This document shows, piece by piece, positions 1 to 12,811 of a stretch of DNA of 12,811 nucleotides. A model generated the notes under the pieces. It was not told the DNA's origin, did not search any database, and was given only the letters and a program-made list of their open reading frames with translations. How positions within the stretch are numbered: position 1 is the stretch's first letter; every line of letters starts with the position of its first letter. A program made the translations under genes and the position numbers. Origin of the DNA: a virus (taxonomy: Duplodnaviria; Heunggongvirae; Uroviricota; Caudoviricetes); the IMG/VR virus record IMGVR_UViG_2778261572_000006, positions 1 through 12,811 of that record. One strand, 5' to 3'.

Positions 1-5
1 GTAAT

Positions 6-188
6 TTAAAAACGGTTCTGTGAAAGTGACACGAACCGATCTCCATCGATGTTACGGGCGACCGCCTCCTGCTGGTCTTCCGGGTAAAGGGAAATCAGTG
101 TCGCCTTGCGTTCGGCAAGAATGGTTTCAAAATCCAGCTCCTCGACCACATCCGGTGCGGGTAGCTGGTTCAGGTCGATAATCGGCAT
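6..188 (-). pseudogene. J: Baseplate assembly protein J (P2 gpJ-like), N-terminal fragment only: about 45 gpJ-like codons, then divergent sequence and an in-frame stop at 6..8
   Basis: Translation MPIIDLNQLPAPDVVEELDFETILAERKATLISLYPEDQQEAVAR matches the N-terminus of P2 gpJ as I remember it. The ORF ends after 60 codons, whereas gpJ-family proteins are about 300 aa. The start is 5 nt downstream of the W stop, as in P2 (V-W-J order). Confidence 0.65.
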
Positions 189-192
189 GGTT

Positions 193-540
193 TCAACTCA
201 CAGGGATGGTTAACGAAAGTGGCTGGCCGGTGTCGTTGTGCTGGCCGGTTAACGTGACCGTCATTCGCCCGTCAAAACTGCGCGCCGTGGTGACAGATGA
301 CAGCGTGACGCGGGGTTCCCATTTCAGCACCGCCATGTAACAGGCGACCTTAATCTGCAACTCAAGCGCCGGGGTCTGCGGCTGGTCAATCATTGACGCC
401 AGCAACGAGCCGTAATCACGACGCATCACCCGTGAGCCGACCGGTGTGCGCAGGATATCGCCGATACTCTGGCTGATATGCTCAAGGTCAGTGACCGTCA
501 GGCCATCACTGCGATTCATTCCGAGATAACGCGCTGTCAT
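193..540 (-). CDS. W: Baseplate wedge protein W (P2 gpW, gp25-like)
   Basis: The 115-aa product (MTARYLGMNRSDGLTVTDLEHISQSIGDILRTPVGSRVMRRDYGSLLASMIDQPQ...) matches remembered P2 gpW in length and sequence. Its start overlaps the V stop (ATGA-type coupling) and synteny is V-W-J. Confidence 0.9.
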   Translation of the reverse strand: MTARYLGMNRSDGLTVTDLEHISQSIGDILRTPVGSRVMRRDYGSLLASMIDQPQTPALELQIKVACYMAVLKWEPRVTLSSVTTARSFDGRMTVTLTGQHNDTGQPLSLTIPVS

Positions 541-1172
541 AGAGGGCTCCCGGTTGTGCCGCCGCTGTCGCCGGGGTGTTTATGGGTATGCAGTACCTTA
601 CCGTTTGATGAGAGTTCACCGCCGGTGTGTTCAATGTTGCCGCGCATCGTCCCGCCCTTCTGCACTTCCAGCGTGCCGGTAATCAGCCTGTTGGTGCAAA
701 CCACCTCCGGTGTGTCCAGGGTGACGCGGGTTGATGCTTTCACCATGACCACCGGCACCGTGGCAGTAACAGAATCAGAAGCCGTCACGCTGGCCGTTTT
801 AATTCCGCTTGCCGTGAGTGCACTGGTTTCGGGTTCATACTCAATCACCGCCCCGTCAGGGAAACGGATATGCAGGGCATCCGCCGACGCAGACGGCGCG
901 GGGTTATCGCCGGAATAAATCCCCGGCAGAACGAACGCCGTGTCGAGTTCACCGCCCACAGCCAGAATCAGCACCTGTTCCCCCACGGAAGGTGCCCACC
1001 ATGTGCGCGAACGTCCGGCGCGATGGGTCAGCCACTGAAGCCAGTCGGTGCACATGCCACCGGTCTGCACACGGCAGCGACCGGCTTTAAGGTTGGTTTC
1101 GACGACAAGGCCGGTACGAATCATGTTGCGCAGTGCGCGCGCGAGTTCCTGAATATTTGCGAGAGTGTTCAT
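537..1172 (-). CDS. V: Baseplate spike/hub protein V (P2 gpV)
   Basis: The ORF 537..1190 contains MNTLANIQELARALRNMIRTGLVVET..., which matches the P2 gpV N-terminus from the 7th codon. I take the ATG at 1172 as the start (211 aa); the upstream ATG at 1190 is a less likely alternative. Confidence 0.85.
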   Translation of the reverse strand: MNTLANIQELARALRNMIRTGLVVETNLKAGRCRVQTGGMCTDWLQWLTHRAGRSRTWWAPSVGEQVLILAVGGELDTAFVLPGIYSGDNPAPSASADALHIRFPDGAVIEYEPETSALTASGIKTASVTASDSVTATVPVVMVKASTRVTLDTPEVVCTNRLITGTLEVQKGGTMRGNIEHTGGELSSNGKVLHTHKHPGDSGGTTGSPL

Positions 1173-1255
1173 GCGTGTGAGATTGCACAATATATAAAAG
1201 TTATGCTATCTGGATTCATTTGTAGAACGACCATACAACATTCGAGGAGAGCGTA
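1173..1255. promoter_or_regulatory. Divergent intergenic region between V (minus) and the AT-rich gene (plus); candidate Ogr-type late promoter for V with a partial TGT-N11-ACA dyad at 1221..1237
   Basis: An 83-bp AT-rich spacer lies between two divergent start codons. TGT at 1221..1223 and ACA at 1235..1237 resemble the P2 late-promoter TGT-N12-ACA element, but the spacing is off by one. A GAGGAG Shine-Dalgarno sits 6 nt before the ATG at 1256. Confidence 0.3.
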
Positions 1256-2041
1256 ATGTTCAGTGATAATGTGACTAATGCGTGGTGGTTTATCTCTTTG
1301 TATCTATTTTTATTAATAGCATTAACATTTATTACCTTTGGTAAAAGTAATCTTATGAGGTTTATTGCACATTATTTCAATTTTGAGTATTCAGACAGAA
1401 AGTTAAAAATGCTCGACAAAAAATGGCGCGACATTCAACTATTTAAAATAATTAACGGAATCAATGTATCAGGCATCGAAGATGTGAGAATGATACAGCA
1501 GGGGCTGATTGATGGAAAACTAAAAACATCGTATTTTTTTCTTACTCGCTTCTGGGGTGACATAACAAAACCACCACACATAATTAAAACAATAATTGTA
1601 ATTCTGTCCAGCATTATTTATATTCTCTTCGCATGTTATATACACAACAAACAATCCGCTATAGTAAGAGATGCCATAGGCATACCATATAAAAAGATGA
1701 TGTACTATGTTTATAGTGACAAAGTTCTTTTATCCTTCAACAATAAAACAGTTGAATTCAATAAAACTTATAGCCTTGCCGATTGCAAGAGGCTACGAAA
1801 CGTATTTATAAAAGACACACTTCCTGAGATCGCCTGCAATAAGCTCTTACAGCTAAACGAGGAGGACTCGGAATGGTTAAGTCAGGAGATTAAAGATAAT
1901 AACAGCCAAAAAAAAGCATTATTAATAATATCCCTCATCTATTTCATTTCAGGTCTGGTTATATTCCTGTCATATACAAAATTCCTTTACGCCAATAAGA
2001 AGGTTGTAGAATACAAAGCATCAAATAAAAATCACTCATAA
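1256..2041 (+). CDS. AT-rich predicted integral membrane protein (three hydrophobic segments), function unknown; moron at the position of P2 orf30 (between S and V)
   Basis: A 261-codon ORF with a GAGGAG RBS 6 nt upstream. Hydrophobic stretches WWFISLYLFLLIALTFITF, IIKTIIVILSSIIYILFACYI and ALLIISLIYFISGLVIFLSY. Codon usage is very AT-rich (many AAA/AAT/ATT/TTA), unlike the flanking P2 genes. It is followed by a hairpin terminator. Confidence 0.6.
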   Translation: MFSDNVTNAWWFISLYLFLLIALTFITFGKSNLMRFIAHYFNFEYSDRKLKMLDKKWRDIQLFKIINGINVSGIEDVRMIQQGLIDGKLKTSYFFLTRFWGDITKPPHIIKTIIVILSSIIYILFACYIHNKQSAIVRDAIGIPYKKMMYYVYSDKVLLSFNNKTVEFNKTYSLADCKRLRNVFIKDTLPEIACNKLLQLNEEDSEWLSQEIKDNNSQKKALLIISLIYFISGLVIFLSYTKFLYANKKVVEYKASNKNHS

Positions 2042-2046
2042 ACCTC

Positions 2047-2086
2047 TAAACATTGAGCGACCAGCATGGCCGCTCAATGTTTAATT
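2047..2086. terminator. Bidirectional intrinsic terminator hairpin between convergent genes
   Basis: Perfect inverted repeat CATTGAGCG (2051..2059) and CGCTCAATG (2071..2079) with an 11-nt loop, extendable to a 13-bp stem (2047..2059 pairing 2071..2083). It is flanked by TTTAATT on the plus strand and an A/T run on the other side, and lies between the stop at 2041 (plus) and the stop at 2113 (minus). Confidence 0.6.
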
Positions 2087-2206
2087 GCGCATCAGCCTCT
2101 GCCTGGATAAAACTAACGCTCAAGGTGAGCCAGGATAATCTCTTCAATCATCTGCACATCCTCACCGGTAAAGCCGAGCAGAGGACGCGCCGGATAATCA
2201 ATTTTC

Positions 2207-2683
2207 TTACCGTCTTTCCGGTTTTCTTCCGACAGACCGAACTGATGCACACTGGCGATTTTCGGTGACTTTCCGCCGTAAAACTCCATTGATGCCTGTT
2301 CCGGGCTGGCGCGGATAACGCGCCCACAGGTCCAGCGTTTTGTAGCGGATATAAAAATCGAAGTTAATCTGGTCGCATTCGTACTTGTTTGACGCCAGCT
2401 TCGAGAAGTCCTTCGGCTGACGCTCGGTGCCACCGGCGGTGTCGGTGGTGCTGGCGATGGAGCCGGTGACACCAATACCAATTTTTTCCCCTTTCATTTC
2501 GCTGACCGGCACAATGTTGATGCGGGTCAGAAAATCAGAGGACTCCTGCATGGTGTTCATCAGGGTCTGGGTGACCGACGGTTCAACGGTGAATTTTTTC
2601 GACACATCACCGGCGTCGATGCCGTTCAGTTCGGCAACACGGGACAGGTAGGCATTAAATTTAAAGCGGGTTTCCTGGCGCAT
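2207..2683 (-). pseudogene. N: Major capsid protein N (P2 gpN), 5' fragment: first ~123 codons intact, then out-of-frame or unrelated sequence and a stop
   Basis: Translation MRQETRFKFNAYLSRVAELNGIDAGDVSKKFTVEPSVTQTLMNTMQESSDFLTRINIVPVSEMKGEKIGIGVTGSIASTTDTAGGTERQPKDFSKLASNKYECDQINFDFYIRYKTLDLWARY matches remembered P2 gpN. gpN is about 357 aa, but only about 570 bp exist between the start (2683) and the terminator (about 2110), so the gene cannot be complete. The expected downstream genes M, L, X, lysis, R and S are absent. Confidence 0.75.
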
Positions 2684-2741
2684 AGTTTTTCCTGAAATTA
2701 AGGGTTAATCGTGAAGGTTTTCCCGGACTGACTGACGCCGG

Positions 2742-3596
2742 TCAGCAGTTCGTCATCAGGGCGTCACCGCCACCGCCGGTGGCCTTGCTGCGGCGCTGCT
2801 GGGTCAGACTTTCGGTGTGGTCGAGGCTGTTTTTCAGGCGGGTGAATGCCTGGCTGGTTTCATCCGCCCTGTCAGTCACATCCTGCTTAAGTGCGGAAAA
2901 GGCGGTTTCCATCTCAGCGAGGCGCTGCTCAGTGGCGCTCAGTTTTTCCTGCACATGTTCAGCAACAGCGGTCACCGCTTCATGCACGTCATTCAGACGG
3001 GCGTCATCGCTGGCCTGTTTGCGGCCAAAAATGGATTTCACCTTTTCGGTCAGGGCGGTGAACACGGTTTCAGGCAGGTCTTCAAATTCCAGCTCAACAG
3101 GCGTTGCCACTGAAATCAGGTTTTCAGGGCTTAATTTGAAGCGGTTCAGGGGGTTGTGTTTTGCCGTGCGGCAGAATTCCAGGTATTCCGTGCCGAGGCT
3201 TGCCGGGTCATCGGTGACGGCCAGCCCCACCAGATAACATTTGCCGGTGTTGGCAAAGTTCGGCTGAATTTCCATTGAGGTGTAGACCTTCTGCGCGGCC
3301 TTGTTCATCGCGATAAGGTCATCGGTCGGGGTGATTTTCGCAAACAGCGCCCATTTGCCTTTCAGCGCCGAATCATCGTCAATCTTTTCGGCCTTCAGTT
3401 CGACCACATCGCCATAACGCTTAAAAATACCGTCAGGCAGGATGCCGCGCAGATGTTCCAGGTTAATGCGGCAACCATAGACTCGCGGGTCAAAGGTTTC
3501 GGCCATTTCCTGAATATCCTGCGCACTGATGACACGCCCGTCACAGGTGTCACCCTCAACGCCGATACGAAAGAATTTTGAGACTTTTTTTGCCAT
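2742..3596 (-). CDS. O: Capsid scaffolding protein O (P2 gpO)
   Basis: Product from MAKKVSKFFRIGVEGDTCDGRVISAQDIQEMAETFDPRVYG... to ...GGGGDALMTNC (284 aa) matches remembered P2 gpO. The ATG at 3596 is preceded by AGGAGTCCTGACA. The ORF-track start at 3662 is an upstream in-frame extension, not the real start. Confidence 0.9.
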   Translation of the reverse strand: MAKKVSKFFRIGVEGDTCDGRVISAQDIQEMAETFDPRVYGCRINLEHLRGILPDGIFKRYGDVVELKAEKIDDDSALKGKWALFAKITPTDDLIAMNKAAQKVYTSMEIQPNFANTGKCYLVGLAVTDDPASLGTEYLEFCRTAKHNPLNRFKLSPENLISVATPVELEFEDLPETVFTALTEKVKSIFGRKQASDDARLNDVHEAVTAVAEHVQEKLSATEQRLAEMETAFSALKQDVTDRADETSQAFTRLKNSLDHTESLTQQRRSKATGGGGDALMTNC

Positions 3597-3769
3597 TGTC
3601 AGGAGTCCTGAATAGTGATTAGAGGAGTCACATGTCGGCATCAGTTTCCCGACGATGCGCATCCTCCGCCATCAGTCCCGGATGGCTTATCACTGACACA
3701 ACAGCACCTTAGCGAATCGCGGGGCGCGACTCAGTAGCCTTGCCGTGTATTCATCACGGCGAGGTATTC
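3597..3769. promoter_or_regulatory. Divergent O/P intergenic region (expected site of P2 late promoters PO and PP); contains the dyad GTCGG-N10-CCGAC at 3634..3653
   Basis: A 173-bp spacer lies between divergent start codons of O (minus) and P (plus). A perfect 5-bp inverted repeat with a 10-nt spacer is seen directly. Assignment as Ogr-dependent late promoters is by synteny with P2 only. Confidence 0.35.
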
Positions 3770-5542
3770 ATGACCATCACCACAGACACCACTCTTTTAC
3801 ACGACCCGCGTCGTCAGGCGGCGCTGCTGTACTGGCAGGGATTTTCCGTGCCGCAGATTGCCACCATGTTGCAGATGAAACGCCCGACGGTGCAGAGCTG
3901 GAAACAGCGCGACGGCTGGGACAGCGTTGCCCCCATCAGCCGTGTCGAAATGAGTCTGGAAGCGCGGCTGACCCAGCTCATCATCAAACCGCAGAAAACC
4001 GGCGGTGACTTCAAGGAAATTGACCTGCTCGGACGCCAGATTGAACGACTGGCACGGGTCAACCGCTACAGCCAGACCGGCAACGAGGCAGACCTTAATC
4101 CGAACGTCGCTAACCGCAACAAAGGCGGGCGGCGCAAACCGAAAAAGAATTTTTTCAGTGACGAGGCCATCGAAAAGCTGGAGCAGATTTTCTTTGAGCA
4201 GTCTTTCGAATATCAGTTGCACTGGTATCGCGCCGGGCTTGAGCACCGCATCCGCGATATCCTGAAATCCCGCCAGATTGGCGCGACGTTTTATTTTTCC
4301 CGCGAGGCGCTGCTGCGCGCCCTGAAAACCGGTCATAACCAGATTTTTCTGTCGGCCAGTAAAACGCAGGCGTATGTGTTCCGCGAATACATCATCGCCT
4401 TTGCCCGGCTGGTTGACGTTGACCTGACCGGTGACCCAATTGTCCTGGGCAATAACGGCGCAAAACTGATTTTTCTCGGCACCAACTCCAACACCGCGCA
4501 GAGCCATAACGGCGACCTGTACGTCGACGAGATTTTCTGGATCCCGAATTTTCAGGTGCTCCGTAAGGTGGCATCAGGTATGGCCTCACAGAGTCACCTG
4601 CGCTCGACCTATTTCTCCACCCCGTCCACGCTGGCGCACGACGCCTACCCGTTCTGGTCCGGTGAACTGTTTAACCGGGGACGCGCCAGCGCCGCCGAAC
4701 GCGTGGAAATCGACGTCAGTCATAACGCCCTTGCCGGTGGGCTTCTCTGTGCGGACGGCCAGTGGCGGCAGATTGTCACCATTGAGGACGCCCTGAAAGG
4801 CGGCTGCACATTGTTCGACATTGAGCAGCTTAAACGCGAAAACAGCGCCGACGATTTTAAAAACCTGTTCATGTGTGAATTTGTTGACGACAAGGCGTCG
4901 GTGTTCCCGTTCGAGGAGCTGCAACGCTGCATGGTCGACACGCTGGAAGAATGGGAAGACTATGCGCCGTTTGCCGCGAATCCGTTCGGCTCCCGCCCGG
5001 TATGGATTGGTTACGACCCGTCACACCGTGGCGACAGCGCCGGATGCGTGGTGCTGGCACCGCCGGTGGTGGCCGGTGGCAAATTCAGAATACTTGAGCG
5101 TCACCAGTGGAAAGGCATGGACTTTGCCACTCAGGCGGAATCCATCCGCAAACTCACCGAAAAATACAACGTCGAATACATCGGTATTGATGCCACCGGC
5201 CTCGGTGTCGGCGTGTTCCAGCTCGTGCGCTCGTTCTATCCCGCCGCGCGCGATATCCGCTACACACCGGAAATGAAAACCGCAATGGTGCTCAAGGCAA
5301 AAGACGTTATCCGCCGTGGCTGTCTGGAATATGACGTCAGCGCCACCGACATCACCAGCTCGTTTATGGCTATCCGCAAGACCATGACCAGCAGCGGACG
5401 CAGCGCCACCTATGAGGCCAGCCGCAGCGAGGAAGCCAGCCACGCCGACCTCGCCTGGGCGACCATGCACGCCCTGTTAAATGAGCCACTCACCGCCGGT
5501 ATCAGCACCCCACTGACATCCACCATTCTGGAGTTTTACTGA
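3770..5542 (+). CDS. P: Terminase large (ATPase) subunit P (P2 gpP)
   Basis: Product MTITTDTTLLHDPRRQAALLYWQGFSVPQIATMLQMKRPT... (590 aa) matches remembered P2 gpP. A GAGG RBS precedes the ATG at 3770, and the stop overlaps the Q start by 1 nt. The ORF-track start at 3740 is an upstream extension. Confidence 0.9.
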   Translation: MTITTDTTLLHDPRRQAALLYWQGFSVPQIATMLQMKRPTVQSWKQRDGWDSVAPISRVEMSLEARLTQLIIKPQKTGGDFKEIDLLGRQIERLARVNRYSQTGNEADLNPNVANRNKGGRRKPKKNFFSDEAIEKLEQIFFEQSFEYQLHWYRAGLEHRIRDILKSRQIGATFYFSREALLRALKTGHNQIFLSASKTQAYVFREYIIAFARLVDVDLTGDPIVLGNNGAKLIFLGTNSNTAQSHNGDLYVDEIFWIPNFQVLRKVASGMASQSHLRSTYFSTPSTLAHDAYPFWSGELFNRGRASAAERVEIDVSHNALAGGLLCADGQWRQIVTIEDALKGGCTLFDIEQLKRENSADDFKNLFMCEFVDDKASVFPFEELQRCMVDTLEEWEDYAPFAANPFGSRPVWIGYDPSHRGDSAGCVVLAPPVVAGGKFRILERHQWKGMDFATQAESIRKLTEKYNVEYIGIDATGLGVGVFQLVRSFYPAARDIRYTPEMKTAMVLKAKDVIRRGCLEYDVSATDITSSFMAIRKTMTSSGRSATYEASRSEEASHADLAWATMHALLNEPLTAGISTPLTSTILEFY

Positions 5543-6576
5543 TGAGCAAGAAAAAAGGGAAAACACCGCAACCTGCGGCAAAAACAATGACCGCCAGCGC
5601 CCCGAAAATGGAGGCATTCACCTTTGGTGAGCCGGTGCCGGTACTCGACCGCCGTGACATTCTGGATTACGTCGAGTGCATCAGTAACGGCAGATGGTAT
5701 GAGCCGCCGGTCAGCTTTACCGGTCTGGCGAAAAGCCTGCGTGCTGCCGTGCATCACAGCTCGCCGATTTACGTCAAACGCAATATTCTGGCCTCGACAT
5801 TTATCCCGCATCCGTGGCTTTCCCAGCAGGATTTCAGCCGCTTTGTGCTGGATTTTCTGGTGTTCGGTAATGCGTTTCTGGAAAAGCGTTACAGCACCAC
5901 CGGTAAGGTCATCAGACTGGAAACCTCACCGGCAAAATATACCCGCCGTGGCGTGGAGGAGGATGTTTACTGGTGGGTGCCGTCCTTCAACGAGCCGACA
6001 GCCTTCGCGCCCGGCTCCGTGTTTCACCTGCTGGAGCCGGATATCAATCAGGAGCTGTACGGCCTGCCGGAATATCTCAGCGCCCTTAACTCTGCCTGGC
6101 TGAATGAGTCGGCCACGCTGTTCCGCCGCAAGTATTACGAAAACGGCGCACATGCCGGATACATCATGTACGTCACCGATGCCGTGCAGGATCGCAACGA
6201 TATCGAAATGCTTCGCGAAAACATGGTGAAATCGAAAGGCCGCAACAACTTTAAAAACCTGTTTCTCTATGCCCCGCAGGGAAAAGCCGACGGCATTAAA
6301 ATTATCCCGCTCAGTGAAGTGGCGACGAAGGACGATTTTTTTAATATCAAAAAAGCCAGTGCCGCAGACCTGCTGGACGCGCACCGCATCCCCTTTCAGT
6401 TGATGGGCGGCAAACCGGAGAACGTCGGGTCGCTGGGCGATATTGAGAAAGTAGCAAAGGTCTTTGTCCGCAATGAGCTTATCCCGTTACAGGACAGGAT
6501 CCGCGAGATAAACGGCTGGCTCGGTCAGGAGGTCATCCGATTTAAAAACTACTCACTGGACACTGACAACGGCTGA
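5542..6576 (+). CDS. Q: Portal protein Q (P2 gpQ)
   Basis: The 344-aa product MSKKKGKTPQPAAKTMTASAPKMEAFTFGEPVPVLDRRDILDYVECISNGRWYEPP... matches remembered P2 gpQ. It is translationally coupled to P and followed by a terminator and the cos site, as in P2. Confidence 0.9.
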   Translation: MSKKKGKTPQPAAKTMTASAPKMEAFTFGEPVPVLDRRDILDYVECISNGRWYEPPVSFTGLAKSLRAAVHHSSPIYVKRNILASTFIPHPWLSQQDFSRFVLDFLVFGNAFLEKRYSTTGKVIRLETSPAKYTRRGVEEDVYWWVPSFNEPTAFAPGSVFHLLEPDINQELYGLPEYLSALNSAWLNESATLFRRKYYENGAHAGYIMYVTDAVQDRNDIEMLRENMVKSKGRNNFKNLFLYAPQGKADGIKIIPLSEVATKDDFFNIKKASAADLLDAHRIPFQLMGGKPENVGSLGDIEKVAKVFVRNELIPLQDRIREINGWLGQEVIRFKNYSLDTDNG

Positions 6577-6580
6577 ACAT

Positions 6581-6604
6581 CGCCGCCTGCGGGCGGCTTT
6601 TTTA
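6581..6604 (+). terminator. Intrinsic terminator downstream of Q
   Basis: GC-rich hairpin GCCGCC-TGCG-GGCGGC (6582..6597) followed immediately by TTTTTT, 5 nt after the Q stop codon. Confidence 0.65.
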
Positions 6605-6746
6605 CACCCCGTCATCACGCCCTCACACGTTCGCCACTGTACAAAACACCCCGCAGACACACCAACGCCCCGGCAGGCCGACTAAACGCCATCACGACGC
6701 GCTCAGACGCTGAAAAAATAAAATCAGCACCACCGCCAGCGCGCAG

Positions 6747-6765
6747 TGCTTTCCCCGCCTCGCCC
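6747..6765. other. P2-type cos site (19-nt cohesive-end sequence, present here as its reverse complement)
   Basis: The plus strand reads GTGCTTTCCCCGCCTCGCC, the exact reverse complement of the P2 cohesive end GGCGAGGCGGGGAAAGCAC as I remember it. It lies about 170 bp downstream of Q, where cos is expected. Confidence 0.7.
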
Positions 6766-6991
6766 GCCCGCTTCATGGGTCGGTTTTGATGCAATTCCAA
6801 AAGCCGTCCTAACTCTCTTAGGCTAAATGTCCAACGAGAAAATAGTTCTTTGAATGTGAATGCATTTTAATGCAGAGTTATGCCCAGCATTTTTGTACAC
6901 TTCGATGTATCAAATGCGCTGCAAACGATCAAATATGGATGTTTTATCAAGCATCCCCCAAAAGATATTTACATCATCCCATGAGGTTAAG

Positions 6992-8065
6992 ATGGATAAC
7001 AAAATCGTAGAAATTGAGACAAATAAGCTTGATTTTGACCCTAAAAACCCACGTTTCTTTCGTCTCAATGATGCCAGTAACGCTGCAACAGTCATTGAGG
7101 AAATGTTAGATGACGAAAGTGTCCACGATCTAATGCTATCAATCGGTCAGCAAGGTTACTTTCCTGGAGAACCTTTATTGGCAGTAAAAAGCAATGGAAA
7201 CTACATCGTGGTTGAGGGAAACAGACGCTTAGCTGCTGTAAAGTTGCTCAATGGAGATCTGCTTCCTCCAAAAAGAAAACTTAAAGGTGTGCAAGAAATC
7301 ATTGATGATACTACCAATAAACCTAAGAAGCTTCCCTGCATCATTTATGAAAACCGAGAGGATGTACTGAGATATATCGGTTATCGTCATATAACTGGGG
7401 TCAAAGAATGGGACTCATTATCTAAAGCCAAATACCTTAAAGAGTTATGTGATACTTTTTATTCACATGAGCCTAAAGAGATAGTATTAAAAAATCTGGC
7501 TCGTGAGATTGGGAGTAAACCACATTATGTTGCAACACTTCTCACTGCACTGAACTTATATGAAGTCGCGCATGACCATGAGTTTTTTAATTTACCCATG
7601 AAGGCTTCTGACGTGGAATTTTCATATATAACCACAGCTTTGGGATATTCAAAAATCACAAACTGGTTAGGTCTACAGGATAAAAAGGATTTTTTAGACC
7701 CAAATTTAAATGAAGAAAACCTTAAGCGTTTATTCTCTTGGTTTTTTGTGCCTGACCAACAAGGTAGAACCATCATCGGTGAGTCTCGAAGAATAAAAGA
7801 TATTGCAGCAGTGGTTGAGAAACCCGAAGCAATTGAAATTCTCATGAAAAGTTCAAACTTGGATGAAGCATATCTATATACCAGCGGAGAAAGAGAAGCA
7901 TTAGATAAAGCACTAAACGCAGCTAGTGTTAAATTAAGAGTAGTTTGGGATATGCTACTTAAAGCTAAAGAATTAACATTAGAGCATGAAGAGGCTGCAT
8001 CTGAAATTTTTGAGATGTCAAAAAATATTAGAAATCAGATCAGAAGCAAAAGGGAGGATGATTGA
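6992..8065 (+). CDS. ParB/Srx N-terminal-domain protein (ParB-like NTPase/nuclease-type domain), 357 aa; candidate defence-module component
   Basis: ATG at 6992 is preceded by GAGGT 6 nt upstream. Motifs KLDFDPKNPRF and YIVVEGNRRLAAVKLL fit the ParB N-terminal-domain pattern (xPNPxQPR ... GERRxRAA-type arginine box). Codon usage is AT-rich. The ORF-track start at 6860 adds 44 non-conserved-looking codons and is treated as leader. Confidence 0.6.
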   Translation: MDNKIVEIETNKLDFDPKNPRFFRLNDASNAATVIEEMLDDESVHDLMLSIGQQGYFPGEPLLAVKSNGNYIVVEGNRRLAAVKLLNGDLLPPKRKLKGVQEIIDDTTNKPKKLPCIIYENREDVLRYIGYRHITGVKEWDSLSKAKYLKELCDTFYSHEPKEIVLKNLAREIGSKPHYVATLLTALNLYEVAHDHEFFNLPMKASDVEFSYITTALGYSKITNWLGLQDKKDFLDPNLNEENLKRLFSWFFVPDQQGRTIIGESRRIKDIAAVVEKPEAIEILMKSSNLDEAYLYTSGEREALDKALNAASVKLRVVWDMLLKAKELTLEHEEAASEIFEMSKNIRNQIRSKREDD

Positions 8066-8069
8066 GATT

Positions 8070-9095
8070 ATGATTACAAATCTTGATTCAATGCCTTCTA
8101 ATGAGCCTTATTTATGGGCTGATTATATTGAGATATTGGCCTTAACTAATATCGACAGGTCATTCAGTCGAGGAGACCTATATAGCACACTGCAAGCTCA
8201 ACCCGAAGCAGTACTAGCTGAAACAGATGAAGCAGAAGAAGAGGGCGTTTATGATGTTGATGATGAAAATGATGCGCCTGTACGCAAGAGAACAAAACGA
8301 AGTGTTAGTCGAGCATATACTGACAGAAAGTGGAGCTATGCGATAGGCTTCATACGACAACGCATTGATTTATTTGGGGATAGTTACCCTTTTACTTTAT
8401 CAGAAGACAACGATACTGTAGAGTTACGTGATATATCAGAAAAGCCACTGGAACATTTAGAAAGACTATATTTAGCTTTACTAATCTGTGCTAACATAAA
8501 ATATGTCAACATAATGAGCAGAAGAGAGATAACGCGCAGTTTTGAACTAATTAGTTTACCTATTTTTGAAAGCCTAATGCCTAGCGGTAGCATAATAAAA
8601 GCATGCTGGGCTTCTGGTGGTCAAGCGGCCCCTTACACTGGAACTCTATATAATAAATTTAAGAGTATTGCTTCCGATATCCGTTGCACAGCGAACTTCA
8701 AAGAACGAGATTTCAGTCGAGGAAATAGTGGTGACGGAGGCCTTGACATAATTGCCTGGCATCCAATGGGAGATCAACGAGATGCCATCCCTATTTCTTT
8801 TGTTCAGTGTGGCTGTTCTCAAGAAGAGTGGGAAGCGAAGCAGCTTGAGGCCTCACCTGCGATGCTCTACAGTAAATTCCCCGTAGCTCACCGATGGGCA
8901 ACTTATTATTTCTTACCTCAAGATCTACGATGGATAGATGGTGAGTGGGCGCATAAAAATAAGTTAGGCGATGCTATTTTTGTTGATCGCCTAAGATTAA
9001 TCAATTTAACCAGAGCATCTGATAATATTGATCACAGTCAAAATATTAGCTATCTAGATATCATCCTTGATCCTTCCAGCGCGATCGCTGCTTAA
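8070..9095 (+). CDS. Hypothetical protein with a C-terminal Mrr-like PD-(D/E)xK nuclease-type motif, 341 aa; candidate defence effector
   Basis: ATG at 8070 lies 12 nt after GGAGG (8053..8057), which is inside the last codons of the upstream gene; an alternative ATG is at 8058. The motif GDGGLDIIAW ... ISFVQCGC ... EEWEAK resembles the Mrr catalytic core GDGG[IV]D ... QxK, from memory. An acidic stretch (ETDEAEEEGVYDVDDENDAP) is followed by a basic patch (VRKRTKRSVSR). AT-rich. Confidence 0.55.
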   Translation: MITNLDSMPSNEPYLWADYIEILALTNIDRSFSRGDLYSTLQAQPEAVLAETDEAEEEGVYDVDDENDAPVRKRTKRSVSRAYTDRKWSYAIGFIRQRIDLFGDSYPFTLSEDNDTVELRDISEKPLEHLERLYLALLICANIKYVNIMSRREITRSFELISLPIFESLMPSGSIIKACWASGGQAAPYTGTLYNKFKSIASDIRCTANFKERDFSRGNSGDGGLDIIAWHPMGDQRDAIPISFVQCGCSQEEWEAKQLEASPAMLYSKFPVAHRWATYYFLPQDLRWIDGEWAHKNKLGDAIFVDRLRLINLTRASDNIDHSQNISYLDIILDPSSAIAA

Positions 9096-10030
9096 TCCCA
9101 TAAATCTGGAAGGTTTCTAGCAACCGCCTCAAACAATGGAGGCGGTACTGCATTACCTACCACAGTATATTTCATATTAATAGAAGCCCGTTCAGTTTCT
9201 GGGAAAATTAAATCCCCAAAACCTTGTAAAATAGCAGCCTCTCGATAGCTAAACCTACGAGCTGGTGCATCCGAAGTAAATTGCCACTTATCAGGTCCCA
9301 ATTTTTCTAATGTTGGACTTATTGGATGTAGAGGCATATGTCTAGGATTTGCAACAATTGTTTTAGATATCTGATCCCAATCTTGCCTACGGTTTCGCGA
9401 TAGATAATACCAATGAAAATCGGCGTCATAAAACTCGCCAACAGGCCAAACAGGCATATGCCCAATAGCATCACGAATTGTGGAATATGGTGTCAAACCA
9501 TCACCATGTGTTGGTTTTGGAAATTTGTATGTAATACCGTAGTCCTTTCGTATTCCTACGATAAAGATTCGCTTCCTATCTTGGGATACCCCATAATGGG
9601 ACGCATTCAGAATTTGCGAGCTTACTGTATAACCTGCTTCTTCGAAAACTTTGAATTGATCCTTTAATAAATGCTCAAAGTTACGCCTTACCATACCAGA
9701 GACATTCTCTACAATGAATGCTTTTGGCTTAATTTTACTCAAAGCACGGGCAAACTCTAAATATAGTGTATTAATCTTTCTATCTGCCTTCCTTGCCCCA
9801 CCTTGACTAAATCCTTGGCAAGGATAGCATCCGATGAGCAACTCAGCAGAAGGGAACGACTGGAGCCCTGAGATATCGCCCAAAATGTAGTCAGTTTCAG
9901 GATGGTTTTCTAAGTAAACGTCCCTTGCGTAAGGCAAAATATCATTTGCCATAAGCACATTGAAACCTGCGTTCAAAACTCCCGCATCAGAACCACCACA
10001 TCCAGAAAAAAGTGAAACTACAGTTGGCAT
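9092..10030 (-). CDS. DNA (cytosine-5)-methyltransferase, 312 aa
   Basis: Canonical C5-MTase motifs in order: SLFSGCGG (motif I, FxGxG), GCYPCQGFS (motif IV, PCQ catalytic Cys), ENV (motif VI), QDRKRIFIVG (motif VIII), then a ~100-aa variable region and RRFSYREAAILQGF ... VGNAVPPPLFEAV (motifs IX/X). An AGGAGG RBS lies 6 nt before the ATG at 10030. Its stop codon overlaps the stop of the convergent gene ending at 9095. Confidence 0.85.
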   Translation of the reverse strand: MPTVVSLFSGCGGSDAGVLNAGFNVLMANDILPYARDVYLENHPETDYILGDISGLQSFPSAELLIGCYPCQGFSQGGARKADRKINTLYLEFARALSKIKPKAFIVENVSGMVRRNFEHLLKDQFKVFEEAGYTVSSQILNASHYGVSQDRKRIFIVGIRKDYGITYKFPKPTHGDGLTPYSTIRDAIGHMPVWPVGEFYDADFHWYYLSRNRRQDWDQISKTIVANPRHMPLHPISPTLEKLGPDKWQFTSDAPARRFSYREAAILQGFGDLIFPETERASINMKYTVVGNAVPPPLFEAVARNLPDLWD

Positions 10031-10272
10031 TGACCCCTCCTAAAAACCGACCGCGTATTATAGCGAAACACCCCGTTGGGAAAAGCTAGATTTTGCCAAG
10101 TCTTGATATTCTCACGTTTTAGTAGTTGTGGCCATCTTTAACGAGAAAAAGATAAAATTGACTTCTCATTAATTTTCAATAGGTTTAATTGTAAGCTCAA
10201 ACTAACGCCTCGCGACACTCGTTATTCAACCCCGCCAGCCCTGAAAACAAGTTTCACGACTGGCGGCGTTCT

Positions 10273-10491
10273 CTATCGTCTGCGTTGTGGTGGCGCAACT
10301 CTGGACTGACCGATATGGTTAAACCGCCCGTAATTATCCCGGACTATTTCGGCACACCCGACCAGCTCATCGGGCGTCAGATTTTCGTTGACCATAATCC
10401 GCTGTAAACGCTGAACAATAGCCATCAGCTTGATATTTTTAGTTTTATGGTGCGGTATCTCGCCTGGTATTCTGTGCATTATCCAAGCCAC
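10273..10491 (-). CDS. Small hypothetical ORF (50-72 codons depending on start), uncertain
   Basis: An ORF in the interval between the DUF3850-like gene and the methyltransferase. There is no convincing RBS for any of the three in-frame ATGs (10491, 10479, 10425), and it overlaps the 3' end of the upstream gene. Kept only as a possibility. Confidence 0.25.
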   Translation of the reverse strand: MAWIMHRIPGEIPHHKTKNIKLMAIVQRLQRIMVNENLTPDELVGCAEIVRDNYGRFNHIGQSRVAPPQRRR

Positions 10492-10921
10492 CCGTTTTGC
10501 TGTGCACGCTCCATCTGTTCATCTGAATAGTTCCATGCTCCATCCGTGGCAACCATTGCCCCGCCAGACATCCCCGTCTCTGGTTCATACATAACAGCAA
10601 GGCCGAGCTGATGCATAATTTCATGATTAATTCTGAATACCAAGCCACGCTCACTAAGTTCTTTCCAGTTCACAATCTCATATGCGCCTGTATTAAGCAG
10701 CTCAATACTTAGCAAGACATAATCTTCCAGCCAGTCTGACAGGTCAGTAACATCTGTTATCCGGGCTTCAACATTTCGCCCCGTATACACACCCTGCACC
10801 CATTCATACAAAATCAACGTGTCCCCGCGCTCATAATTACGGTCATTTTTCCGGAACTCTGCACGTTTCTTTCCTTCCAGCACAAGGTCGAAATATTTTG
10901 CGTGCAGCTTTACCTCGTGAA
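10479..10921 (-). CDS. DUF3850/ASCH-like (PUA-fold) domain protein, about 147 aa
   Basis: ATG at 10921 is preceded by GGAGTGGA. The N-terminal MAKIHEVKLHAKYFDLVLEGKKRAEFRKNDRNYERGDTLILYE fits the ASCH/DUF3850 pattern (GxKxxExR ... GDxLxL). It lies immediately downstream of gene A on the same strand. The ORF-track start at 10967 overlaps the A stop and is less likely. Confidence 0.55.
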
Positions 10922-10930
10922 TTTTTGCCA

Positions 10931-12673
10931 TTATGTCCACTCCATTACTGTTGAGAATCCCGGCCACTCATCAGCGACCGGATACGTGAATTTTTTCCCG
11001 TCATAATTTACGGTCGCGCCACGCGCCAGCGCCTCAAGCTCCCATCGCTGCGGCCTGATACCGTTCTGAGCAAGGTCAACGCGGATACGGGTAATTTGCG
11101 TTCGTTCCGACCGGGTCAGTCTGGCCGATGGCGCTATTTCATGTGGTTTTAACGGGCTTCCGTTTCTCTGCTGACGATTTGGTGTTCTCAGTTCGTGTTT
11201 TAATGCACCTCTGAGCGCCCTCACGACCTCCGGGTCATTCCATTCGATAACACCGTCATCAACCAGATTAAGCACTGCTGCGGCGTGCTCAGAAGGCGTG
11301 GGAGCCGGTAACGAAGTATCACCACCGGTGAGCTTTCCACAGTTATTGACAGGACTCCGAGGCGCGGCGATGCCGCTTTTTAAAGTCAAAGGCTCAACGA
11401 CCGGAACTTTCGGCACAATGCGCCAGTCCGTCGTTCTGGTGATATGAATATGACGCGCGCCGAGATGCGGCGCGTAAATGCCGACCACTCTCTCGACTTC
11501 TTCCTCGTACTCGTTAACGTCATCCGACGGGCTACGGGCGACCCTGACAGTCTGACAATCGCGCGGGACATTTGCCCCGCCCTGCGCGCTGATATACAAC
11601 GCAAAATCACCACTGTCTGCGGCGGCGCGTGCAGCCTCGACGCGTTCGTCAAACTCATCAGCAATGCTGACGCCGCGAGGCAATTTGCGTAGCTCACGGT
11701 AAGCCCCCATTGTCGGCAGGCCAACCGTTTTAAATTGCGGAATGCGCCACGTTGACGCCCATGCGGTAACAGCCGCGGCAGTATCTTTAAGCGGCTTACC
11801 GGTATCGTTATCGAGCTGACCATCCAGTGCATAGCCGTCGATGTTTTTTGAGATGTATTTCGCGATATATCCCGCAGCACCGCCCCGGTTAAGGTGTTTT
11901 GCCTGAAAACGGTTTCGCGCGGCTCCTCTTTCGTCTCCATCCTCTTTGAGCGCGTAGCGACGCATGATTTCAATAATCTGGTTACGCTGGCGTGGATTAC
12001 AAAAAAGCATCATATGCCAGTGCGGCGTTCCGTCGTGGTGTGGCTCGACGACACGCAAACCGTAGACCTGTAAATCATTATCCTTGAATGCCGTGCGCAT
12101 CAGGCTCCAGATACGGCAGAGATAACGCTGCGCATCCTTTGGATTAAATGCCTCATCGTTCCAGCCGTGATTAAGCTGCACGGTTTTACTTTCGCCTTTT
12201 CCGACCTGACGTGTCGGGTGATACTTTGACGGCGCGGTCAGCGTGATAAACATCCCCACATCACCCTCTGCAGCGGCGTAACGCTCAATACCGGCAATGG
12301 TGTTCATCAGCTCCATCCGGCGAATTTCAGGATTAGAAATACTGCCCATCACCTTACTGATAAGGTCGATGCGCTCGCCGGTTTCCCTGTTTTCAAGGTC
12401 ACACGATTTAAGAAATTCCAGATTTGCCTGGCGGCGCGCACGCACATCACGAATGGCATGTTTACTGGCATAAGGAGAACGGTCTTTATTGACCTCCCCG
12501 ACAGCTATCAGTAACGCTTCATGCCAGCGCATACGCTGGCCTTTAAGCTGATGAGTCCACCACTCATCGTTAAACAGGCGGGCAATGGCAGAATATGCCT
12601 GCCTCGTGGTCATCTGCCCTTTACGGTATTTTTTCCAGTAAAGCGGGGAAATATTGAAAGCACATGCAGCGCC
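10931..12673 (-). pseudogene. A: Replication initiation protein A (P2 gpA, rolling-circle HUH endonuclease), 5'-truncated by an IS10 insertion; about 580 C-terminal codons remain
   Basis: The product contains the HUH-type motif PHWHMMLF and the active-site tyrosine region GYIAKYISKN and ends ...FSTVMEWT, as in remembered P2 gpA. Reading upstream of the first ATG (12613), the frame continues as ...AFNISPLYWKKYRKGQ, which is still gpA-like, up to 12673. There it abuts the IS10 terminus, and an in-frame stop follows 4 codons into the IS. Confidence 0.85.
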
Positions 12674-12719
12674 CTGATGAATCCCCTAATGATTTTGGTA
12701 AAAATCATTAAGTTAAGGT

Positions 12720-12788
12720 GGATACACATCTTGTCATATGATCAAATGGTTTCGCGAAAAATCAATAATCAGACAACAAGATGTGCGA
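12720..12788 (-). ncRNA. IS10 RNA-OUT antisense RNA (pOUT transcript), position inferred
   Basis: Placed purely from remembered IS10 coordinates (RNA-OUT spans about element positions 47-115 and is complementary to the transposase start region). Not independently derivable from this sequence. Confidence 0.35.
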
Positions 12789-12811
12789 ACTCGATATTTT
12801 ACACGACTCTC
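12781..12811 (+). CDS. tnp: IS10 transposase, N-terminal 10 codons (partial; runs off the window)
   Basis: ATGTGCGAACTCGATATTTTACACGACTCT translates to MCELDILHDS, the remembered N-terminus of IS10 transposase. Confidence 0.8.
   Translation, partial: MCELDILHDS

Follow-up and report, generated by a model that had tools for sequence, protein, structure and literature searches.

An IS10-Right end within replication gene A of a P2-like prophage remnant

The stretch of DNA analysed here (the window, 12,811 nucleotides) closes on its right side with a replication gene A reading frame that lacks a beginning and abuts foreign DNA, which raises the question as to what this DNA is, how it came to lie within the gene and what the interruption means for the prophage. 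The window is the entire draft contig NLMV01000093.1 of assembly GCA_002229415.1, and its right end is an assembly break inside a repeat. An earlier note on this sequence had proposed that the gene A frame runs without a start codon up to 12673 and that an IS10 outside end follows from 12674, and both alignment to intact homologues and an identity of 138/138 to IS10 uphold this description. The features of the right end are listed below, with the evidence for each in brackets.

10931–12673, minus strand: 3′ part of a P2-type gene A, codons 182–761 plus stop, a 580-codon open frame (translation, Pfam, alignment)
12611–12613, minus strand: first in-frame start of this remnant, Met202 of A, the start of the 560-aa ORF reported by gene callers (translation)
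12665–12673: putative 9-bp IS10 target TGCAGCGCC, codons 182–184 (Gly-Ala-Ala) of A (adjoins the IS terminus, consensus fit)
12674–12811, plus strand: IS10-Right outside end, nt 1–138 of 1,329, cut by the contig end (138/138 identity)
12719–12788, minus strand: RNA-OUT antisense RNA gene (Rfam RF00240, positions 1–70 of 70, 98.8 bits against a gathering score of 41, E = 4e-20)
12740–12743: single GATC (Dam) site, IS nt 67–70, in the pIN promoter region (position in the sequence)
12781–12811, plus strand: start of the IS10 transposase gene, with its ATG at IS nt 108, reading MCELDILHDS (10 codons) and running off the contig end (sequence)

Across the right end the sequence reads AAAGCACA (ending GCACA), followed by TGCAGCGCC and then by CTGATGAATCCCCTAATGATTTTGGTAAAAATCATTAAG; the foreign side begins CTGATGAATCCCCTAATGATTTTGG, with the C of its CTGATG at 12674. 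In alignments, the homology to intact P2-like gene A (replication endonuclease) breaks exactly between 12673 and 12674. Pairwise alignment with the intact gene A of CP018250 gives 100% identity up to 12673 and unrelated sequence past 12674, the intact gene continuing past the break point as TGCAGCGCC then AGCAACATGACC; an intact gene A would read TGCAGCGCCAGCAACATG here. A 512-nt query spanning the junction (12300–12811) matched 3,699 E. coli records, and all gene A matches ended at query base 374, which is window position 12673. The same junction was not encountered elsewhere: megablast of this query against 5,426 complete E. coli genomes returned no place covering at least 80% of its length, and exact junction patterns were absent from the GTDB representative genomes, IMG/VR and the JGI metagenomes. 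The right end is confirmed as a genuine join, far beyond chance, at which the 3′ four-fifths of a P2-type gene A meet the outer end of IS10-Right.

The foreign stretch is identical over 138/138 positions to the ends of IS10 elements in about 2,000 E. coli records (E = 3e-65), which PGAP annotates as 'IS4-like element ISVsa5 family'. A complete solo copy on a chromosome measures 1,329 bp, is flanked by a 9-bp duplication (CGCTGGGCA) and ends in GGGGATCTCTCAG; its first base is exactly the C found at 12674, and at 12674–12696 the outside-end terminal repeat CTGATGAATCCCCTAATGATTTT agrees in every base with that of complete copies. The 138 nt are also identical to the outside end of IS10R in Tn10 on R100, and IS10-Left differs from it at six positions within these 138 nt (IS nt 24, 25, 27, 47, 83 and 107), so that the element is, as judged from these positions, of the IS10-Right and not of the IS10-Left type. 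The GC content is 35% in the IS stretch as against 49% in the prophage DNA.

The regulatory elements expected of such an end are in place. RNA-OUT is complete, occupying IS nt 46–115 with its 5′ end at nt 115, and is transcribed from pOUT outward, in the sense of the gene A remnant; this direction is taken from the RNA-OUT match and the literature, the promoter scan having found no pOUT. The annotated 402-aa transposase CDS of a complete copy begins at the same position as the ATG seen here. As for the GATC site, Roberts, Hoopes, McClure and Kleckner reportedly described in 1985 a regulatory role for Dam methylation sites in the pIN region.

On the prophage side, the remnant matches Pfam Phage_GPA (PF05840) with E = 1.1e-114 and 383 bits against a cut-off of 31.4. 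The match is restricted to profile positions 48–321, while an intact A covers positions 1–321 at its residues 133–462. The remnant corresponds without gaps to residues 182–761 of the 761-aa A encoded by a P2-like prophage in E. coli N68, with 572 of 580 residues identical. It also aligns with residues 182–759 of a 765-aa homologue and shares 98.6% amino acid identity with gene A of Yersinia phage vB_YpM_50. Counted against these intact homologues, exactly 543 nt, or 181 codons, are absent, and the Pfam domain loses its first 47 positions with them; the earlier figure of about 175 missing N-terminal codons is to be corrected accordingly. What remains retains the HUH motif (HWH, in PHWHMMLF) and the tyrosine pair (YIAKY, in GYIAKYISK) at residues 450 and 454 of the 761-aa homologue, Y450 and Y454 being the catalytic tyrosines of P2 A.

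On the minus strand, not a single in-frame ATG, GTG or TTG occurs from 12673 to the ATG at 12613–12611, and the frame, when followed further upstream, closes at a TAG within the IS (12686–12688); its stop codon lies at 10931–10933. The locus is therefore a gene fragment and not a functional member of its family, a complete gene having about 761 codons and its own start. The truncated 560-aa product is on record in two sources, the NCBI and Logan assemblies, and its proper annotation is that of a pseudogene fragment beside IS10R, not a 560-aa 'replication endonuclease'. The break falls within the conserved Phage_GPA domain, neither promoter nor start precedes Met202 and 181 residues are gone, from which we infer that gene A is inactivated and that the prophage should therefore be unable to start rolling-circle replication. 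The 580 codons that remain are free of frameshifts and stops, an uninterrupted state that fits a recent event.

Dozens of 'complete' RefSeq E. coli chromosomes match the gene at 544–917 or at 544–2286, and coordinate 1 of such a record is therefore the first base of a prophage gene A. These chromosomes seem to have been rotated to start at the phage 'replication' gene and not at dnaA.

IS10 moves by a cut-and-paste mechanism in which a DDE transposase cuts the target with a 9-bp stagger. The nine bases that adjoin the IS terminus here may accordingly be compared with the target consensus sequences, of which NGCTNAGCN and NRCNNNGYN are quoted in PMC4574204 and PMC2744996. TGCAGCGCC agrees with the strict consensus NGCTNAGCN at 4/6 specified positions and with the relaxed consensus NRCNNNGYN at 4/4, which bears out the earlier observation of a partial fit to the IS10 preference and adds a full fit to the relaxed form. 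Counted over the 9-mers of the non-IS DNA of the window (56–12673), 4.1% reach at least 4/6, 1.8% fit the relaxed consensus and 0.7% fit NGCNNNGCN (GC at positions 2–3 and 7–8). The target-like 9-mer lends modest support to the junction as a primary product of transposition.

Gene A was very probably knocked out by transposition of IS10-Right into a P2-like prophage. In the proposed course of events, IS10-Right, either a solo element or the IS10R arm of Tn10, would have transposed into gene A of this prophage in an Escherichia-type genome. Its outside end would have landed directly beyond TGCAGCGCC, such that the transposase gene points away from A while RNA-OUT and pOUT point into the remnant. 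We favour a simple insertion, in which the remainder of IS10, the second TGCAGCGCC and codons 1–184 of A probably lie on another contig of the assembly. For a solo IS10, the far side is predicted to carry the inside end GGGGATCTCTCAG followed by TGCAGCGCCAGCAACATGACC, and the simple insertion would link an IS10 end to TGCAGCGCC-AGCAACATG, the 5′ part of A; for Tn10, it would carry a second outside end, GGGGATTCATCAG, followed by the same target, with tetA/tetR between the ends. The end of the contig at IS nt 138 is explained by the way in which short-read assemblers break off at IS sequences present in several copies, and the break implies that the genome contains more than one copy of the IS10 end sequence.

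The predicted second junction (TCAG followed by TGCAGCGCC and AGCAACATG) was likewise absent from the 5,426 complete E. coli genomes, the GTDB representative genomes, IMG/VR and the JGI metagenomes. Pattern scans, in collections that lack the other contigs of GCA_002229415.1, turned up only chance hits, from unrelated MAGs and a single metagenome contig, none of them beside an IS10 end. The fusion of A residues 1–184 to the inside or outside end of IS10 was pursued at the protein level through nine predicted read-through products, none of which occurs in a collection of 15 billion proteins. These products were built on four guessed N-terminal variants, and fragments are absorbed into full-length clusters in that collection; the negative is weak and uninformative because the N-terminal sequence of this strain could only be guessed, and even for the 3′ part of gene A no E. 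coli match exceeds 98.1%. How far the contig runs into its terminal elements (55 nt of the left one, 138 nt of the right one) was also considered as a guide to the copy number or type of IS10, but the reasoning proved inconsistent and overly speculative and was abandoned.

The same single junction would be left by an IS-mediated deletion or inversion, so that the position of the missing N-terminal codons beyond the IS, which the earlier note took as necessary, is only probable. IS10 may have inserted at this point first, and whatever lay beyond it may then have been lost or carried elsewhere, through recombination between two IS10 copies or through an adjacent deletion or inversion promoted by IS10. 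The early region (B, cox, C and int) and the 5′ part of A would in that event not adjoin this IS10 copy and would perhaps be missing from the genome. Such a rearrangement would suit a prophage that already carries a 4.7-kb deletion and an ISEc12 element in J and is decaying by several routes. It would also suit an element that is usually multicopy (a median of two places per IS10-bearing E. coli genome), as the contig break itself implies for this genome, and the guessed fusions of the 5′ part of A with IS10 were indeed not found in the protein collection. That last result is uninformative, however, and nothing positive speaks in favour of a rearrangement. An exact terminus beside a consensus-like 9-mer marks a primary insertion, and a later event on the far side would leave it unchanged. 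We consider this course a tentative possibility that leans towards the unlikely.

A second proposal is that the visible end belongs to a composite Tn10 carrying tetR and tet(B), of which it would form the IS10-Right arm. This modifies the insertion model and does not compete with it; solo IS10 and Tn10 could each be involved in a simple insertion as well as in a rearrangement. The identity of all 138 nt to the IS10R outside end of Tn10 on R100 agrees with it, as does the orientation, with the outside end facing the target as is expected of Tn10. The stretch is equally identical, however, to solo chromosomal copies with 9-bp duplications of their own; solo copies are common on chromosomes and plasmids, and the window contains no tet sequence. 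A composite element is therefore, in our estimate, unlikely.

The simple insertion of IS10-Right remains our preferred reading, and events of this kind, in which IS10 inserts into a gene of a prophage, are known and common. The earlier note had seen in the element a hint of a Tn10 history, natural or from laboratory construction, a suggestion which loses its force when the same IS10 end is found in 1,877 of 5,426 complete E. coli genomes (about 35%) and in 3,047 plasmids. IS10 is frequent in natural E. coli, and its presence is therefore no signal of laboratory construction. A frequency of 16% of genomes is given in PMC4574204.

That the join is an assembly artefact, with prophage reads chimerically fused to an IS10 repeat and the real gene A intact, is hardly credible. 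The suspicion arises from a draft contig that was built from short reads and ends in a repeat, yet IS10 is joined precisely from its first base and next to a target-like 9-mer, whereas a chance chimera would pay no regard to the terminus of the element. NCBI and Logan, moreover, both record the truncated ORF.

The IS10 insertion is not the only lesion of this prophage. When the window is compared with related prophages, positions 53–12673 span 17.3 kb of their sequence, and at least two further features account for damage elsewhere, as listed.

1–55, plus strand: right terminus of ISEc12 (IS21 family), cutting baseplate gene J (identity, adjoins istB)
2314–2317: junction of a 4,717-bp deletion at a GATA microhomology, where the 3′ part of S, a tail completion gene, is fused to the 5′ part of N, the major capsid gene (alignment to relatives)

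About 1,900 E. coli records contain the first 55 nt at 100% identity, the median being three copies per genome, and in annotated ISEc12 copies this stretch lies directly beyond istB. What is left of J, which breaks off about 45 codons in, occupies 56–188 on the minus strand, and the ORF at 6–188 (minus strand) comes to 60 aa only. IS termini are thus found at both ends of the contig, ISEc12 on the left and IS10 on the right, and the left end is, like the right, an assembly break in a repeat. Draft contigs that end at IS termini hide the second junction, as is illustrated here.

The deletion takes part of S, two thirds of N and all of R, lysC, lysB, lysA, K, Y, X, L and M, which costs the prophage its lysis genes (endolysin and holin), its small terminase subunit and the larger part of the capsid gene. 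At its junction, Pfam finds only positions 82–148 of the Phage_tail_S profile and only positions 1–117 of Phage_cap_P2. The prophage is thus defective in capsid, packaging, lysis and baseplate functions independently of A. This qualifies the earlier proposal that the interrupted initiator leaves the prophage unable to replicate on its own: a full A initiator cannot indeed be made, but the account is incomplete, as the defect of the prophage does not come from the loss of A and the ISEc12 in J and the 4.7-kb deletion are present as well. The surviving genes are all intact and about 98–99% identical to those of relatives, on account of which the decay looks recent. This P2-like prophage survives as a cryptic remnant, damaged independently at three places.

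Several accessory genes lie in the parts that survive. An ORF of 261 aa between V and S (1256–2041, plus strand) gives no significant match in either Pfam or PADLOC; its frame is intact in the window, whereas the annotation of the closest relative, E. coli N68, shows it as frameshifted (5204–5988). The variable region between portal gene Q and A holds three genes (6992–9095, plus strand, and 9092–10030, minus strand). One encodes a 357-aa ParB-N-like protein, matched by PADLOC as PD-Lambda-5_A (N-terminal 150 aa, E = 2.5e-24) and also as PDC-M38A, one a 345-aa protein without family whose gene overlaps the former, and one, in convergent orientation, a DruM-like C5 cytosine methyltransferase (Dcm-type, E = 1e-110). 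These genes may form an uncharacterised defence or anti-restriction cassette. In CP018250 (positions 1–1544), cdtABC, encoding a cytolethal distending toxin of type V, replaces the DUF3850 and methyltransferase genes downstream of A, and the region downstream of A is therefore a cargo hotspot.

Directly downstream of A, and overlapping its stop codon, lies a gene for a 150-aa DUF3850/ASCH/DUF7415 protein (10479–10931, minus strand), which is followed by a 68-aa ORF without family (10273–10479, minus strand). These two would be the first genes that any read-through from pOUT meets.

The IS10 pOUT promoter activates adjacent genes, for example otsBA in E. coli rpoS mutants (PMC2744996). No terminator-like site is predicted between pOUT and the IS end, and since pOUT is known to activate neighbouring genes, read-through into the remnant may be possible at this locus as well; a simple promoter scan of a complete IS10 copy picked up neither pIN nor pOUT. 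Read-through could here only yield an N-terminally deleted A or reach the genes downstream of A. The product from Met202 would keep the HUH motif and both catalytic tyrosines, and an A protein without its first 201 residues is unlikely to work. That pOUT constitutively expresses A from Met202, or reaches the downstream accessory genes and so rewires the defence-gene hotspot, appears improbable to us. Were it true, the insertion would do more than kill a gene, as it would rewire expression in a hotspot of prophage defence genes.

When the locus is set beside known systems, the IS end shows no difference from the IS10-Right of Tn10 (IS4 family) within the visible 138 of its 1,329 nt. The gene A remnant shares about 98–99% amino acid identity with A of P2-like prophages and phages, along with the HWH motif and Tyr450/Tyr454, and it has the same position as in its relatives, downstream of the early operon and upstream of a DUF3850/ASCH gene; it differs from them in that codons 1–181 are absent and that the contig is without the promoter-proximal part. 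With the activation of otsBA by IS10, the locus has in common that pOUT and RNA-OUT are directed outward through the outside end, sense to the neighbouring gene, whereas the IS in that case lies upstream of an intact gene and here it lies inside gene A.
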